From: a virus
Lineage: Duplodnaviria; Heunggongvirae; Uroviricota; Caudoviricetes
Reading direction: 5' to 3' (one strand)
Virus record (IMG/VR): IMGVR_UViG_2698536505_000015
Length of the DNA stretch: 8,994 nt
Shown here: piece by piece, positions 1,825 through 8,916 of the stretch
Numbering within the stretch: the first letter of the stretch is position 1
How the letters are laid out: every line of letters starts with the position of its first letter
The notes under the pieces: model-generated
Seen by the model: only the letters and a program-made list of their open reading frames with translations
Database searches by the model: none
Told to the model about the DNA's origin: nothing
Translations under genes and position numbers: made by a program

Positions 1825-3282
1825 TTAGGAGCGCCAAAAAAAACCTGAAAACAATATAATAACAGGATAAATTTCAAGGCGACCAAGAATCATAGCTATG
1901 CACATTAAACATTTTGCAATGTCATTAAGCACTCCGAATGACGATGCAGTAGCCCCAAAACCTAATCCCATATTATTAATACATGCAGCCACTGTTGCAA
2001 ATGATGTAAGAAAATCATATCCCATACCATTTAACACCAGTATAAAAAACACCGTGAAGAGAGTATAAAGAAAAAAGAAACTCCATACAGACCTCATTAC
2101 ACGATCTGTAACTATCTTCCCTCCTACATTTACACTCAACAACGCTCTGGGATGAGAAAGCTGATTTATCTCGTGTTTGCTTTGTTTGAAAAGTATAAGA
2201 AATCGAAGTGACTTAATTCCACCACAAGTTGAACCTATACATCCCCCAAAGAAACTTGACAACAGCAAAAACACTATCGTGTGCGTGGGCCAACTTGCAT
2301 AATCCTGCGTAGCTAAACCATTATCAGTGAGCATGGAGCTGGCAAGAAAAAACGAATGAATAAAACTTCCATGCAAGTCATACATACCTATATGCCAGAC
2401 CTGGAAAGAGGTAACAATGATCACCCCTAAGGCTATTAACAGAAAGAAACGAAGTTCAATATCTCTGATTAAAGGTTTTATCGTTTTCCTGCTAATAACA
2501 ATATACCAAAGAGTGAAGTTGAAAGCCGATAGCAGGGAAAAAGAACCAGCCACCAGCTCAACCAAATAGTTATTAAAATATCCGATACTCTCGCTATGAG
2601 TTGAGAAACCACCAAGCGAAACTGTGGAAATCCCGTGACAAATAGCATCAAACAAAGGCATTCCTGCAAGTCTATAACAGACAATACAAGCAATACCTAA
2701 TAAAGAATAAGTTATCCACAGTGTCCGTGACGTATCGGCCAGGCGGGGAGTGAGTTTGTCATCCTTAAATGGCCCCGGCATTTCTGACTGATAAAGCTTT
2801 GCACCACCAATACCCAATAATGGCAATACAGCAACCGCCAGAACAATAACTCCTAAACCACCTATAAAATTTAACTGTGACCGATAGTACAAATATGCCC
2901 GAGGTAATGAACTAACATCATCAATTACAGTTGCTCCTGTTGTTGTTATTCCAGAAACCCCTTCAAACAGAGCATCAATGAACGTTAAATTAAGTTCTGA
3001 GTCAATCCATAAAGGGAATGCACTAATAACAGAAAACAAAATCCAAAACATTACAATTATAATAAACCCATCACGGGTACGTAATTGAATGCCAGATTTC
3101 TTAGTTGTATACCACGCTCCGCCACCAATGCAAAAAAATATAACGAAAGTTATAAAGAAAACGAACAGGATTTTTTCTTTATAAAACAATGCTACAACCA
3201 TTGGTGGCAACATTGAAAGACTATAGAGCCAAACCAGGAACCCACACATATGAGTAACAACTCTTACATGAGATGTATTCAT
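1825..3282 (-). CDS. trkG: TrkH/TrkG-family potassium uptake membrane protein (Rac-type trkG moron)
   Basis: Polytopic membrane protein, 485 aa from the ATG at 3282 (the ORF-track start at 3300 is a TTG extension); repeated pore-loop-like glycine motifs (SGITTTGATV, GGFSTHSESIGY, GGCIGSTCGGIK); strong resemblance to E. coli TrkG/TrkH from memory; gene and upstream region visibly more AT-rich than flanking phage genes. Confidence 0.9.
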   Translation of the reverse strand: MNTSHVRVVTHMCGFLVWLYSLSMLPPMVVALFYKEKILFVFFITFVIFFCIGGGAWYTTKKSGIQLRTRDGFIIIVMFWILFSVISAFPLWIDSELNLTFIDALFEGVSGITTTGATVIDDVSSLPRAYLYYRSQLNFIGGLGVIVLAVAVLPLLGIGGAKLYQSEMPGPFKDDKLTPRLADTSRTLWITYSLLGIACIVCYRLAGMPLFDAICHGISTVSLGGFSTHSESIGYFNNYLVELVAGSFSLLSAFNFTLWYIVISRKTIKPLIRDIELRFFLLIALGVIIVTSFQVWHIGMYDLHGSFIHSFFLASSMLTDNGLATQDYASWPTHTIVFLLLSSFFGGCIGSTCGGIKSLRFLILFKQSKHEINQLSHPRALLSVNVGGKIVTDRVMRSVWSFFFLYTLFTVFFILVLNGMGYDFLTSFATVAACINNMGLGFGATASSFGVLNDIAKCLMCIAMILGRLEIYPVIILFSGFFWRS

Positions 3283-3419
3283 ATCTAAATATTCTTTCAA
3301 TTATAACCACCTTGCTGCAATATTATGATTATACTGTATAAAATTTAACTCCTCTTAGATCTTACTTCACTGTTCCTTATGAAACAATCATCAAAATGAA
3401 TCATATTGTAGTTAAGATT

Positions 3420-4844: not shown

Positions 4845-5240
4845 CTAACCTCGCATGTCAAAGCCAGATTTCTGAAAATCTCTGTAGACTTCCGGATTGT
4901 TGAAGGCCGGAAATTTGGCTTTATGAGCTGCGGACTTTATCGCTTCGCAATAGGCTTTATCACCGTTACTGGTAGATATTTTTAACGCCGTGCCATCCTG
5001 AGAGAATTCCATATGCAACCTGCATTTTTTCCCTTTCCAGTTATGCGGCTCATCAAGTTTGGCATTAATTGCAGCTCTGATTCCCCGCGCTTGCGCCCCC
5101 CATTCATCCTGATCATCCCAGCGTCCTGAACTGCAACTACCTGTAGCAGTAGTTTTGTGGCAATCTGAAGGGTGTAAAGGTGTGCATCCCGCAACAAAAC
5201 CGACCCAAAAAGTCAACATAACGATTTTCTTTAATCCCAC
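4845..5240 (-). CDS. Lipoprotein with TolA C-terminal domain (domain III)-like mature region, paralog 2
   Basis: GTG start with GAGGAG SD 7 nt upstream; signal peptide with lipobox FVAGC; mature part shares GK.C.L...DG.L.I...GD..C.A...AA..AK.P....VY..F pattern, including a Cys pair, with paralog 1 and with E. coli TolA domain III as recalled. Confidence 0.7.
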   Translation of the reverse strand: MGLKKIVMLTFWVGFVAGCTPLHPSDCHKTTATGSCSSGRWDDQDEWGAQARGIRAAINAKLDEPHNWKGKKCRLHMEFSQDGTALKISTSNGDKAYCEAIKSAAHKAKFPAFNNPEVYRDFQKSGFDMRG

Positions 5241-5390: not shown

Positions 5391-5819
5391 TCAGGGTTTA
5401 AAATCCAGCACCCCATTTTGAAATACTTTATATACTTCCGGCGAAGGGGGGGCAGGTATATCAGCATTCTTTATCGCATTCATCGCTTCACGACATAAAT
5501 CGAGGTCTCCACTTTCTCTTTTAACCTCCAGTAGAAGGCCATTCGGGGCCATATGCATTCTCAGTGTACACTCTTTTCCTGAATACTTACTCGCATCCCC
5601 GAACTGTTTTTCGATGGCGCTCTTGATTTGATGGGCATACAGACGGATATCCTCACTAACATCAGAAGTACGTTCAGATGAACTCACATACTGTGTCTCT
5701 ATTGCTTTATCGGAGTAATATGATGTACGGTCATGATAATTTGTCGATACAGCATCAGTGCACCCGATAATAATCCCACTAATAATCAACGTAAGAATTG
5801 ATGCGCTACGAAAACCCAT
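5391..5819 (-). CDS. Lipoprotein with TolA C-terminal domain (domain III)-like mature region, paralog 1
   Basis: ATG with GAGGA SD; signal peptide with lipobox IIGC; C-terminal 85 aa (YAHQIKSAIEKQFGDASKYSGKECTLRMHMAPNGLLLEVKRESGDLDLCREAMNAIKNADIPAPPSPEVYKVFQNGVLDFKP) aligns closely with the C-terminus of E. coli TolA as recalled. Confidence 0.8.
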   Translation of the reverse strand: MGFRSASILTLIISGIIIGCTDAVSTNYHDRTSYYSDKAIETQYVSSSERTSDVSEDIRLYAHQIKSAIEKQFGDASKYSGKECTLRMHMAPNGLLLEVKRESGDLDLCREAMNAIKNADIPAPPSPEVYKVFQNGVLDFKP

Positions 5820-5878: not shown

Positions 5879-6407
5879 ACAGCGAATCAGATCAAATAAA
5901 ACGCACATTTGTTAACATTTACACAAAGTCTGCGTGGGATATTCTGAAAGAATATCCATAATGTGGAGAGAATCTATTGAAGTGCATGGTGCCGGGTGCC
6001 TCCCGGTGAACAAAATGTTCGTGATACCTGTCGGCGACAGAAAAGGTTAATGGTATCACCCCACCGCACAGGGGGATTCACCATGCAGGAGTTTTCTTAG
6101 CAAACTCACTGCGCGCCCGGCAACTCCCAACCACATAAAATGCGGAGTTTGTGGTATTTATGCATATAACTCGCAGGAATTATCTTAAAAAACTGATGTC
6201 GATCCGGATTAAAAAGAAGCAGGTCATCATCAGATGACTGGAAAAAAGGAAAACAAAAAATACTCATCATACAGTTTTGATTGCAGGGATGAGCCTGCTA
6301 TGCACAATATGCAGAATATAAGCAAGATAAAAATATGCAGGCATATTATTTCGGATTTTGTTATTAACACAACCTTTTTAATAATCATTTGGCATACAAT
6401 AAACCAG

Positions 6408-6436
6408 CCCAAAAAGAACCGCCTAAACAGGCGGTT
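6408..6436 (-). terminator. Rho-independent terminator (minus-strand sense) in the late leader region
   Basis: Inverted repeat aaccgcc (6417-6423) / ggcggtt (6430-6436) with 6-nt loop, followed on the minus strand by CUUUUU (complement of 6411-6416). Confidence 0.45.
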
Positions 6437-6680
6437 GGTCAATACAAAGGATGCTTCGTCTTTATTATAGTAATCTGAGGCGTCGGGTGTCTTGTATCAG
6501 ACAACATATTGTCCCGCTAAACAGCGAATTACAAACCACCCTGCAATGATCTCTCATCTCATTTTATATGAGTTGACGACATCAGGATAACGCATCATCA
6601 GCCCCTGCCAAGAAATATCAAAACTCCCGCCAGCAATGTGTTATCACAATATTGTAAAAAAAACACAGCACCGAAACTAT

Positions 6681-6719
6681 AACTGGTCTCTGTTATAATT
6701 TGGAGCAGAAAGACCAGTT
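6681..6719. repeat. Perfect 9-bp inverted repeat AACTGGTCT ... AGACCAGTT separated by 21 bp, bracketing an extended -10 element
   Basis: Arms at 6681-6689 and 6711-6719 read directly; the spacer contains TGTTATAAT. Confidence 0.5.
6691..6699 (+). promoter_or_regulatory. Candidate extended -10 promoter (TGnTATAAT) on the plus strand, directed toward the bidirectional terminator
   Basis: TGTTATAAT at 6691-6699; no good -35; a transcript from here would end at the terminator at 6757-6783 (about 75-85 nt). Confidence 0.3.
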
Positions 6720-6756
6720 GCCCAACTAGCAGCATTCTCCCCTGCTTTCCTGACGT

Positions 6757-6783
6757 AAAAAAACCGCATTAAGCGGTTTTTTT
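6757..6783. terminator. Bidirectional rho-independent terminator (candidate tR'-like late terminator in minus sense)
   Basis: aaaaaaaCCGCattaaGCGGttttttt: GC stem flanked by an A7 tract upstream and a T7 tract downstream, so a stem plus U-tract forms in both orientations. Confidence 0.6.
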
Positions 6784-6838
6784 ACGATGTCCATGTCTGC
6801 AATCCGCCTCGCGATACAGCTTTGCGAAGCATAGCAAA

Positions 6839-6867
6839 ATTGAAGCAGTTTATACGTAAGAAATCAA
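6839..6867 (-). promoter_or_regulatory. Candidate late promoter (pR'-like) directly downstream of the Q-position gene
   Basis: Minus-strand -35 TTGATT (6862-6867, overlapping the Q stop codon), 17-bp spacer, -10 TTCAAT (6839-6844); placement analogous to lambda pR' after Q; predicted short transcript ends at the 6757-6783 terminator. Confidence 0.3.
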
Positions 6868-7406
6868 GCCATTTTCTCAGCAAATGATTCACGCATGGGA
6901 ATATATAGGGCATACTCAGCAACAGCTAACCAATTAGCAATCCGTTTTTCGCATGTGCTAAAACACCACTCTGGGTGTGCATCATTTAGCAATTCAGCCA
7001 TTTTGCGCTTAGTCATCCCCCGCCCTTCATAGCGTTGCCGGAGAATGCAAATCAATCCTGGATGCTCTGCCAGCACCTCACTTATGACTCGATCAATACA
7101 TAACGCCTCTGCATCAGTACAATGCGCCAGCCAGCTCTTTTGCTTGCCGTTGATCATCTCTCGCAAAAACGCTTCCAGCTCAGCTTTCTCTATTCCCGCT
7201 TTTTTCATTCTGCGCAGGGCTTCATTAATGGCTGTTTTCGTCAGTTTTTTGGATGCCAACAACTGATTGAACATATTCCCTGACCTGCCACCGCCAATAT
7301 ACGACCAGCGCCCCCACATACGTAGTTTTCCCTGAATCCAGACACTTTCCAGCGTGGTGAGGCGAAGGTGTTCTCCGCTTTTTCCTGTATTCGTTGGGTA
7401 AATCAT
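6864..7406 (-). CDS. Putative late-gene antiterminator (Q-position protein)
   Basis: 180-aa ORF immediately upstream of the candidate late promoter/terminator and lysis genes; start overlaps the stop of the upstream gene (ATGA). Family assignment rests mainly on position. Confidence 0.5.
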   Translation of the reverse strand: MIYPTNTGKSGEHLRLTTLESVWIQGKLRMWGRWSYIGGGRSGNMFNQLLASKKLTKTAINEALRRMKKAGIEKAELEAFLREMINGKQKSWLAHCTDAEALCIDRVISEVLAEHPGLICILRQRYEGRGMTKRKMAELLNDAHPEWCFSTCEKRIANWLAVAEYALYIPMRESFAEKMA

Positions 7407-7693
7407 AAATGACCTTTCTTTCTCCAGATTTCTTGTGTGCGAAAAACCCCTTCAGCATGCATCAGGCGCAATTCTTCTTTGGTGTAATCGCTGGTTTTTA
7501 CCCGCCCGTCGATTAGATCGTGGCATGAGCTACAGGCTATCGCCGCCTGCATATCGTGTGGTTTTGTCGCTGTTCCGCACGTCCCCGCCAGCCTGTAATG
7601 CGCCAGCACAGAGGTTTCGGGATTGTGATTGCAGTAGCCAGGGATTCTGATCTGGCACATCTGGCCTTTAGCCGCTTTACGTAAATTCACCAT
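7403..7693 (-). CDS. ybcO: YbcO-like DUF1364 zinc-binding protein (putative nuclease of lambdoid nin regions)
   Basis: 96 aa; four-Cys pattern (CQIRIPGYC ... CSSCHD); N-terminal MVNLRKAAKGQMCQIRIPGYCNHNPETSVLAH matches E. coli DLP12 YbcO as recalled; start overlaps the upstream stop (TAATG). Confidence 0.7.
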   Translation of the reverse strand: MVNLRKAAKGQMCQIRIPGYCNHNPETSVLAHYRLAGTCGTATKPHDMQAAIACSSCHDLIDGRVKTSDYTKEELRLMHAEGVFRTQEIWRKKGHL

Positions 7694-8292
7694 TACGCAA
7701 ACTCCAGTAGTTGTGCGGCCACATTTTCAACTTCCTCCTGAGAGGAGAATTTACGGAACAGAATCCAGTTCCACAGCACATTCAGTACAGATTTATAAAC
7801 CTGCTGAAACTCGACTTCGTCCACATTCGCAAAAGCGATGGATTTTGCCCGACGCCCACGGCTACCGTCCGGATAAATATGCTCGGTGTAAAATCCGGCC
7901 TGAATGGTTACCCACTCGCGGAAAGCCTCAAACGACTTTAGCAACGCCGTATCCCGGGTTCTACGAGTCGCAACGGTGTTAAGGTATTGCTCTGCGGCAT
8001 CACTCAGGGCTGGCGTGTGTTCCCGACCAACTGATTCGCACAGGTAATCAACGAAACCAGACAGCAGTTCTCGTTCGCGAGGCGTGATCGCCCCACCGAC
8101 CGGAGTCCAGTAATCGAATCCCAGTTGCAGGAGTTTGAAAAAACGCTTGTGGAATGCGTAGTTACGCACACGCTTAAAGTCTGCGTGTATCCACTCACCT
8201 ATTTTGATTTGATGCAGAAAATCGCAACTCTCCGGCGTCGCCGGGAGAAGTAAACCAGAAGAAGTTTGTTTGACCAGTTGTATATGCGCCAT
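7693..8292 (-). CDS. DUF1367-like nin-region phage protein (YbcN-position)
   Basis: 199-aa ORF, first of three translationally coupled genes; family assignment from memory of lambdoid nin-region proteins, not verified. Confidence 0.5.
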   Translation of the reverse strand: MAHIQLVKQTSSGLLLPATPESCDFLHQIKIGEWIHADFKRVRNYAFHKRFFKLLQLGFDYWTPVGGAITPRERELLSGFVDYLCESVGREHTPALSDAAEQYLNTVATRRTRDTALLKSFEAFREWVTIQAGFYTEHIYPDGSRGRRAKSIAFANVDEVEFQQVYKSVLNVLWNWILFRKFSSQEEVENVAAQLLEFA

Positions 8293-8565: not shown

Positions 8566-8652
8566 ATGGAAAACAACAAATCTGCACATTACGCTCCTTT
8601 TTTATCTGTAATACTTTTTGTTTTTTGCTGTGTATGGGCATTATTTTTATAA
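8566..8652 (+). CDS. Small hydrophobic protein, 28 aa (MENNKSAHYAPFLSVILFVFCCVWALFL); candidate small membrane protein or type-I-toxin-like peptide
   Basis: ATG preceded by AAGGTGAG Shine-Dalgarno at 6-nt spacing; short polar N-terminus followed by a single predicted TM helix; the only plus-strand ORF with a strong RBS; below the length cutoff of the supplied ORF track. Confidence 0.35.
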   Translation: MENNKSAHYAPFLSVILFVFCCVWALFL

Positions 8653-8729
8653 AAATATTCACAGATAAAATAAACTCGCCGAATCAGGTTAAGTGTGGGT
8701 GCGTTGAGGATGCCTGACACATCAGAGGC

Positions 8730-8751
8730 GGCGAGGGATTTCTCCCTCGCC
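8730..8751 (-). other. GC-rich hairpin 10 nt after the hok stop codon (3' UTR stem-loop)
   Basis: Perfect 9-bp inverted repeat ggcgaggga (8730-8738) / tccctcgcc (8743-8751) with 4-nt loop; no U-tract follows on either strand, so it looks like an RNA stability or folding element rather than a canonical terminator. Confidence 0.4.
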
Positions 8752-8760
8752 TAGTCACTC

Positions 8761-8916
8761 TTACTCCTCAGGTTCGTAAGCTGTGAAGACAGCGACCTCC
8801 GTCTGACCGGTTCGGATTCGCACCTCGCAGAGGTCTTTCCTCGTTACCAGTGCCGTCACTATGACGGTTAAACAGATGACAATCAGTGCGACTAACATCG
8901 CCTTTTGCTGCTTCAT
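8761..8916 (-). CDS. hok: Hok/Gef-family type I toxin (HokD/RelF-like)
   Basis: Hand translation gives MKQQKAMLVALIVICLTVIVTALVTRKDLCEVRIRTGQTEVAVFTAYEPEE (51 aa), the Hok/Gef pattern with TM helix and conserved C..C; AGGAGAA SD upstream; below the ORF-track cutoff. Confidence 0.85.
   Translation of the reverse strand: MKQQKAMLVALIVICLTVIVTALVTRKDLCEVRIRTGQTEVAVFTAYEPEE

Follow-up and report, generated by a model that had tools for sequence, protein, structure and literature searches.

Antisense or convergent short RNAs with shared terminators, encoded in the late or immunity regions of lambdoid phages, are exemplified by OOP and paQ of lambda and by sar of P22. The late cassette of lambda and phage 21 comprises a promoter, a -10-like sigma-dependent pause element, a terminator and the late genes (bioRxiv 10.1101/651190). 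In Stx phages, premature termination of transcription from the constitutive late promoter downstream of Q yields the short RNA StxS (PMC7547250, which also names paQ and OOP), and in EHEC prophages convergent anti-sRNA pairs, AgvB and AsxR, occupy a moron site downstream of pR' (PMC4104026). Proteins of the DUF1133 family have been assigned as Q antiterminators through HHpred (PMC8136144). Antitermination activity has been demonstrated for AntQ of Salmonella Gifsy-1, which is encoded upstream of isrK (PMC4825925), and from the organization of a Salmonella enterica locus (L011, described below) we infer that AntQ belongs to DUF1133.

The locus described here lies in a window of 8,994 bases, meaning the whole stretch of DNA that was analysed. 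It had been proposed to hold a convergent promoter pair that shares one bidirectional terminator, with a perfect inverted repeat bracketing the plus-strand -10. We consider it likely that the locus is instead the Q-dependent late cassette of a Rac-like lambdoid Escherichia coli prophage, situated beside a deletion scar, and that neither the repeat nor the plus-strand promoter is part of that cassette.

The order of parts matches that of the pR'-6S-tR' region of lambda and of phage 21: directly after the Q gene come a promoter, a hexamer resembling a -10 where the predicted transcript begins, a short RNA that ends at a terminator, and then the late genes. The window differs from both in that its Q, a DUF1133 protein, is only a distant relation of Q21, that its -10 combines TTnAAT with a TG motif rather than presenting a canonical hexamer, and that its -35 overlaps the Q stop codon; moreover, its predicted RNA is 76 nt long, against 194 nt for lambda 6S. 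With StxS it shares the predicted production of a short RNA, by premature termination, from the late promoter directly downstream of Q, a candidate sRNA in lysogens, although we found no sequence relationship between the two. It also resembles IsrK of Salmonella Gifsy-1 (PMC4825925), a short terminated RNA that follows a DUF1133-type antiterminator and comprises a 5' hairpin and a terminator, but the window is without the orf45/anrP/C4 module. AgvB/AsxR, OOP/paQ and sar are conserved families with mapped 5' ends, whereas the plus-strand candidate of the window has no homologues, matches no Rfam family and is located at a deletion junction.

Genomic context of the locus

The recognisable genes of the window all lie on the minus strand. 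Together with one RNA family match, they are arranged as follows:

8761-8916, minus: hokD, first in transcription order
7693-8292, minus: DUF1367 protein
7403-7693, minus: YbcO
6864-7406, minus: Q-position gene, encoding a 180-aa DUF1133 protein
5930-6116, minus: STnc100 RNA (RF02076), 86.6 bits against a gathering score of 47
5391-5819 and 4845-5240, minus: two ORFs with a TolA C-terminal domain, 82.6 and 54.6 bits
downstream of the Q cassette, minus: phage 21-type holin, lysozyme, Rz and large terminase

An intergenic stretch of ~420 bp follows the DUF1133 gene, ahead of STnc100, and the stretch around the cassette has 100% identical copies in many complete E. coli genomes. The copy in strain CP53 adjoins trkG, within a Rac-like prophage, and the RefSeq record of this strain carries no annotation from the DUF1133 gene to the TolA-like gene. 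A DNA search of the phage collection with positions 6100-6760 returned no match.

Several neighbouring elements deserve mention in their own right. STnc100 has a terminal hairpin of its own (5937-5957), and a 2026 preprint (10.64898/2026.05.13.724894) links it to the PasD sRNAs of EPEC prophages. The two TolA-like ORFs, to which RefSeq gives the name TolA C-terminal domain protein, lie between the Q cassette and the lysis genes and probably represent accessory ('moron') genes; IS elements break them up in strain CP53. A perfect 12-bp inverted repeat, TTATAAAGAAAA/TTTTCTTTATAA (3150-3184), is located close to the 5' end of the ORF for the large terminase (1825-3300, minus), while a 20-nt imperfect inverted repeat and a 9-bp GC-rich hairpin (8600-8670, 8730-8751) are found just downstream of hokD. 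The Rfam sok family has no match in the window; matches to it occur beside hok in the comparison loci L002, L004, L007, L009 and L011.

A DUF1133 protein at the Q position

The Q-position protein matches the Pfam family DUF1133 (PF06576) with 356 bits, and marginally matches Phage_antitermQ (PF06530) with 26.1 bits against a cut-off of 26. Its Salmonella homologue in L011 reaches 36.1 bits with the latter profile. A profile built from 14 members of the family matches the Q21 structures 6JNX and 6P18 (E=3.8e-5), and the match is collinear over residues 14-39 and 95-178. An AlphaFold model of the protein, computed from a shallow alignment, was poor (pLDDT 61.6); when it was compared with the PDB using Foldseek nothing significant was returned, Q21 appearing at rank 3 (E=0.92). 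Because the structure model is poor, the relationship to Q21 is drawn from sequence profiles, whose scores, weak as they are, indicate that the protein is a distant relative of the phage 21 antiterminator.

The late promoter and its start-site element

Two elements of the putative cassette surround the predicted transcription start:

6839-6867, minus: late promoter of the pR' type, in a register conserved in 28 distinct sequences
6828-6833, minus: TATGCT, a -10-like hexamer across the predicted start, candidate sigma-dependent pause element

The promoter comprises a -35 TTGATT (6867-6862), a 17-bp spacer with a TG at 6847-6846 (-15/-14) and a -10 TTCAAT (6844-6839), and the predicted minus-strand start is A6832. 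The stop codon of Q, TGA (6866-6864), falls within this -35. In family members of 192 aa the overlap goes further, with the 3' end of the Q reading frame extending over the -35 and most of the spacer.

We compared 33 loci that carry relatives of the Q-position protein, taken from one genome per species, together with phage and E. coli variants. A shared layout, placed after the Q gene or overlapping its 3' end, was found in 30 loci with 28 distinct sequences, and runs in the order TTGnnn, a 17-bp spacer with TG at -15/-14, TTnAAT, 5 nt, TAnGCT, a hairpin-forming transcribed region and a terminator. The loci with this layout represent about a dozen enterobacterial genera: Escherichia, Shigella, Citrobacter, Klebsiella, Enterobacter, Buttiauxella, Kluyvera, Pseudescherichia, Shimwellia, Phytobacter, Silvania and Superficieibacter. 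In register, TTG, TG, TT.AAT and TA.GCT each show conservation of 90% or more across the 28 distinct sequences, which gives the cross-genus promoter consensus TTGnnn, N11, TGn, TTnAAT, N5, TAnGCT. The layout is kept even where Q is only 52-64% identical, in Klebsiella, Enterobacter, Buttiauxella, Kluyvera, Citrobacter, Shimwellia and Phytobacter. Within E. coli, the bands of homology show that Q, promoter and terminator (6757-6867) move as one mosaic unit, which is ~82% identical in O157:H7 prophages. The late promoter that the original prediction had placed directly after the Q-position gene is thus borne out by comparison, since both its geometry and the -10-like element at its start recur after DUF1133 Q genes in many genera.

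The -10 TTCAAT is without the usually essential A at -11, presumably compensated by the conserved TG motif. A promoter scan of the window listed neither of the two promoters: the one on the minus strand because TTCAAT is without the A that the scan requires at position 2 of the hexamer, and the one on the plus strand because it has no -35. We also considered TAnGCT as the true -10 in place of TTnAAT. This is less likely, given that the invariant TTG stands at a 17-bp spacing from TTnAAT, that no -35 precedes TAnGCT, and that a later start would cut the conserved 5' hairpin of the transcript. The Q21 binding element consists of two 8-bp direct-repeat subsites. In the 28 sequences the spacer is partly conserved and no clear direct repeat could be assigned as a Q-binding element, in a comparison made without the sequence of the Q21 site. 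By analogy with the lambda/21 cassette (bioRxiv 10.1101/651190), TATGCT would act as the pause element.

A short leader RNA and its terminators

Downstream of the start, three further features complete the predicted cassette:

6757-6832, minus: predicted promoter-proximal leader RNA of 76 nt, a 6S/StxS-type by-product
6754-6786, both strands: tR'-type intrinsic terminator, symmetric (A7-stem-loop-stem-T7)
6408-6436, minus: second intrinsic terminator, in the late leader; an 8-pair stem followed by CTTTTT (terminator scan)

The length of the leader RNA is that from A6832 to the end of the U-tract at 6757. It begins with a 5' hairpin, GCUUCGC-N11-GCGAGGC, and the whole RNA folds with -30.1 kcal/mol (z -4.2). 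Positions +1 to +28 are almost invariant in copies from E. coli, Citrobacter and Pantoea; covariation for the 5' hairpin was unobtainable from these near-invariant sequences, in which the terminator columns were also misaligned.

The terminator is a perfect 14-bp inverted repeat, CGTAAAAAAACCGC/GCGGTTTTTTTACG (6754-6767/6773-6786), with a loop of 5 nt. Its core reads A7-CCGC-loop-GCGG-T7 and hence presents a hairpin followed by a U-run on either strand, folding with -19.7 kcal/mol on the minus strand and -19.5 kcal/mol on the plus strand (z -8.2 and -7.2). Such a structure at 6754-6786 is far beyond chance, and its perfect symmetry makes it bidirectional by sequence. In the window it lies 50-76 nt downstream of the start. 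Related loci have a strong intrinsic terminator 60-110 nt downstream of theirs; an equivalent is present in all of them except one, where the script pattern found none. This recurrence downstream of DUF1133 Q genes supports the original proposal of a minus-strand transcript, predicted at ~76 nt, that ends at the 6757-6783 hairpin.

The second terminator folds with -14.3 kcal/mol. Just upstream of it (6436-6408), the minus strand carries a promoter-like site, AAGACA-18-TATAAT (6493-6464, 10/12), which would yield an RNA of ~50 nt within the late leader.

The lambda 6S/tR' logic invoked in the original prediction fits the locus well: the promoter, the -10-like element and the terminator are present and conserved, and pausing and read-through are added by analogy. 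On the lambda/phage 21 paradigm, the late promoter would be constitutive, RNA polymerase would pause at the -10-like TATGCT, and Q would load there. Without Q, transcription would stop at 6757 and the 76-nt RNA would be released; with Q, both terminators (6757-6783 and 6408-6436) would be read through into the late genes. This is the standard Q/pR'/tR' cassette of an antiterminator of the Q21 superfamily and opens no new mechanism. Its value lies mainly in annotation, as it places the late promoter, a probable pause element and tR' for DUF1133, a widespread and little-studied Q family. The promoter consensus could serve to annotate late promoters, and the short RNAs that they would release in lysogens, in many enterobacterial prophages.

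A deletion junction between the arms of the inverted repeat

Beyond the terminator, the window contains the features that gave rise to the idea of a convergent regulatory unit, together with a boundary between two modules:

6703-6704: mosaic or deletion junction between the Q-cassette module (6704 and above) and the late-leader module (6703 and below)
6681-6719: 9-bp inverted repeat across the junction, judged fortuitous
6676-6699, minus-strand RNA: small AT-rich hairpin of the late-leader module, AUUAUAAC-N8-GUUAUAGU

The motifs of the original prediction are all present where it had located them. The inverted repeat is perfect over 9 bp (AACTGGTCT, 6681-6689; AGACCAGTT, 6711-6719), with 21 nt between its arms, and the plus-strand extended -10 TGTTATAAT (6691-6699) lies inside its loop. 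Three independent comparisons, however, put the junction at 6703|6704, between the two arms. In STEC-type prophages (L038-L041), similarity to the window extends from Q down to exactly 6704; read on the late strand, the right arm is present as ACTGGTCTTTC in L038 and L039, whereas its place is taken by ACCGGTCT in L040 and by GCCGGTCT in L041. In L042, L043 and ~30 more genomes, similarity spans 6533-6703 and ends at 6700-6703. The 6533-6703 segment comes after a tRNA cluster in phages of this type, which encode Q proteins of different families, PF06323 for L042 and PF03589 for L043 (Q82-type and lambda-type Q genes). The left arm and the TGTTATAAT region are thus also found together with Q genes of other kinds, where the right arm is missing and no terminator is close by. 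Strain 2020N21-246 (L045), finally, is 99% identical to the window on both flanks and has 560 bp inserted exactly between 6703 and 6704, which sets its repeat arms 581 bp apart and leaves its extended -10 facing the insert.

The insert of L045 (865-1424) is collinear with the tRNA region of L042, L006 and L009 and also with the flank behind the L038 terminator, which makes the longer form ancestral and the window a deletion form. The inserted sequence itself comprises degenerate remnants of the tRNA region and a flank like that of STEC prophages. A deletion of 560 bp would have joined the flank of the Q cassette (from 6704 upwards) to the late-leader segment (up to 6703), creating the arrangement of the repeat and TGTTATAAT. 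These alignments suggest that the inverted repeat and the opposing promoter are most likely accidental products of the deletion, and that an attractive constellation of motifs can come from a deletion junction.

We also asked whether the arms might form a long-range stem around the tRNA/moron region. The two arm 8-mers co-occur only in the window's lineage, which rules out such a stem as a conserved element. The deletion form is the common form, present in 444 of 5,426 complete E. coli genomes (8%), but the 444 full-length copies are near-identical, and their conservation therefore cannot speak for function. As separate observations, the late-leader segment 6533-6703, which begins with the AT-rich hairpin, is common to prophages with three different Q families, and parts of it are present in ~800 E. 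coli genomes.

The AT-rich hairpin is found in the window, L042 (~2641-2665), L043 (~2600-2623) and L045, and its substitutions in L042 and L043 give G.U wobbles on the minus-strand RNA only. The plus-strand 'TATAAT' is no more than one arm of this hairpin. The counterpart of TGTTATAAT is CGTTATAAT in L042, where the TG is lost, and TGTTATAGT in L043, where TATAAT is altered; neither locus has a terminator near this counterpart.

Readings of the plus-strand promoter and the inverted repeat

Even as an accident of the deletion, the plus-strand promoter may be active. It would then produce some incidental antisense transcription that ends at the symmetric terminator, a non-adaptive RNA of the pervasive kind that arises from AT-rich acquired DNA, and this is compatible with the late-cassette explanation. 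The extended -10 is a perfect TGnTATAAT and the only occurrence of this motif in the window, and it is preceded by an A8 tract, 32-39 bp ahead of the TATAAT hexamer. By its motifs it is a credible promoter in vitro, from which the terminator would stop the transcript after ~80 nt. The promoter has no -35, however, and the region may be silenced in vivo. We therefore hold incidental activity of this kind to be possible, if somewhat short of probable, and a start on the plus strand might be detectable, though we would not quite expect it.

In its full form, the model behind the original prediction has a real and regulated plus-strand promoter, a repeat that acts either as an operator for a dimeric regulator or as a designed RNA element, and two short RNAs that share the terminator and make up a functional sense/antisense pair. 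Its motifs are not only present but perfect, the terminator is equally strong on both strands, the predicted plus-strand RNA folds with z -5.6, and convergent sRNA pairs are known downstream of pR' in EHEC prophages (PMC4104026). The distribution of these elements argues otherwise. An operator or designed RNA element would not be expected to have its arms in different mosaic modules that a deletion has brought together, and the repeat is not conserved in the related prophages by which the original prediction had proposed to judge it. Nor is the convergent pair a unit that belongs to the family: an antisense TGnTAnnnT (at least 5/6, within 150 nt of tR') occurs in 2 of the 27 distinct family loci, the window and one other, so that the arrangement is missing from 25, and the promoter motif is damaged in both L042 and L043. 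The motif frequencies are within chance. Per dinucleotide-shuffled window, 1.6 perfect 9-bp inverted repeats with loops of up to 40 nt are expected, as are 0.45 occurrences of TGNTATAAT, which appears at least once in 38% of shuffles; the repeat and TGTTATAAT are for this reason individually unremarkable. The plus-strand RNA has no Rfam match, to AgvB/AsxR or otherwise, beyond the terminator. We consider the model of a regulated promoter with a functional RNA pair very improbable, and that the convergent arrangement is a selected regulatory device strikes us as very unlikely.

A related idea is that the deletion accidentally created a functional ~80-nt antisense RNA on the plus strand, which selection then spread to 8% of genomes. 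The occurrence of the deletion form in 444 of the 5,426 genomes may indeed reflect selection rather than clonal inheritance. If the idea were true, the RNA would pair with the first 50 nt of the read-through leader and modulate the late genes, or would act as a trans sRNA, and the birth of an sRNA would have been caught at a mosaic junction. We regard this as highly unlikely.

The repeat could alternatively form a functional hairpin in the read-through leader, such as one that gained a use in RNA processing or stability once the deletion had occurred. Folding of the 61-nt segment by itself does give such a hairpin (-15.2 kcal/mol), and the deletion form is the common one. Its z on the minus strand is only -1.5, however, and in the fold of the 243-nt read-through leader the 9-bp repeat reaches a probability of 0.28, against 0.72 for the conserved small AT-rich hairpin with which it is mutually exclusive. 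With the 444 copies being near-identical, the leader hairpin has neither conservation nor covariation to draw on, and there is very little likelihood that it serves such a purpose. The late cassette beside a deletion scar remains the preferred explanation of the locus.

Relationship to IsrK and other RNA families

The gathering score of the Rfam family isrK (RF01394) is 50; its match to positions 6757-6830 (minus strand) reaches 21.6 bits. As the plus strand scores 20.1 bits, the match is essentially that of the terminator. True isrK RNAs, with 67-81 bits, do occur behind DUF1133 genes, namely those of E. coli ECMA0423 (L007) and Salmonella s1 (L011), and are succeeded there by a C4-type RNA and an ORF6N antirepressor; Rfam and Pfam searches found neither a C4 RNA nor an antirepressor gene downstream in the window. 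We reject isrK membership of the window leader on its score and on this context. For either short RNA, isrJ, AgvB, AsxR and the other Rfam families gave sub-threshold, terminator-driven matches only, and the window RNA is a member of no Rfam family. The leader was also considered as a precursor of the PasA/PasC sRNAs, and it has no similarity to the PasA locus of E2348/69.

An ORF of 45 aa (6598-6735) contains the repeat and straddles the deletion junction. Its length is the same as that of orf45 of Gifsy-1 (PMC4825925). It has no Pfam match and no RefSeq annotation, carries frameshifting indels in L042 and L043 and is split in L045, and so is not conserved. The hydrophobic product was considered as an orf45 homologue or as a type I toxin with an antisense RNA, and both candidates were rejected on these indels and the split at the junction. 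Pairing of the short RNA with the downstream leader, as an IsrK-like activity would involve, is no better than in shuffled sequences (z -0.13). It is accordingly extremely unlikely that the locus works in the manner of Gifsy-1 IsrK, with the short RNA activating translation of the 45-aa ORF in trans and the repeat taking part in alternative structures.

In Salmonella enterica s1 (L011, 3001-4460), the DUF1133 Q gene is followed by isrK, a C4 antisense RNA, the ORF6N antirepressor gene and then a second promoter of the window type. An Rfam c4-a1b1 match overlaps isrK there, below the gathering score of that family. The second promoter lies directly after the antirepressor gene and has the same initially transcribed sequence as that of the window, so that the isrK module stands upstream of a separate window-type promoter; as the two are separate and consecutive in L011, they are different elements. 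The isrK-C4-antirepressor block looks like a module resembling P1 immI that has been inserted between Q and its cognate late promoter. Such an insertion, if true, would change the usual description of IsrK as a pR' transcript.
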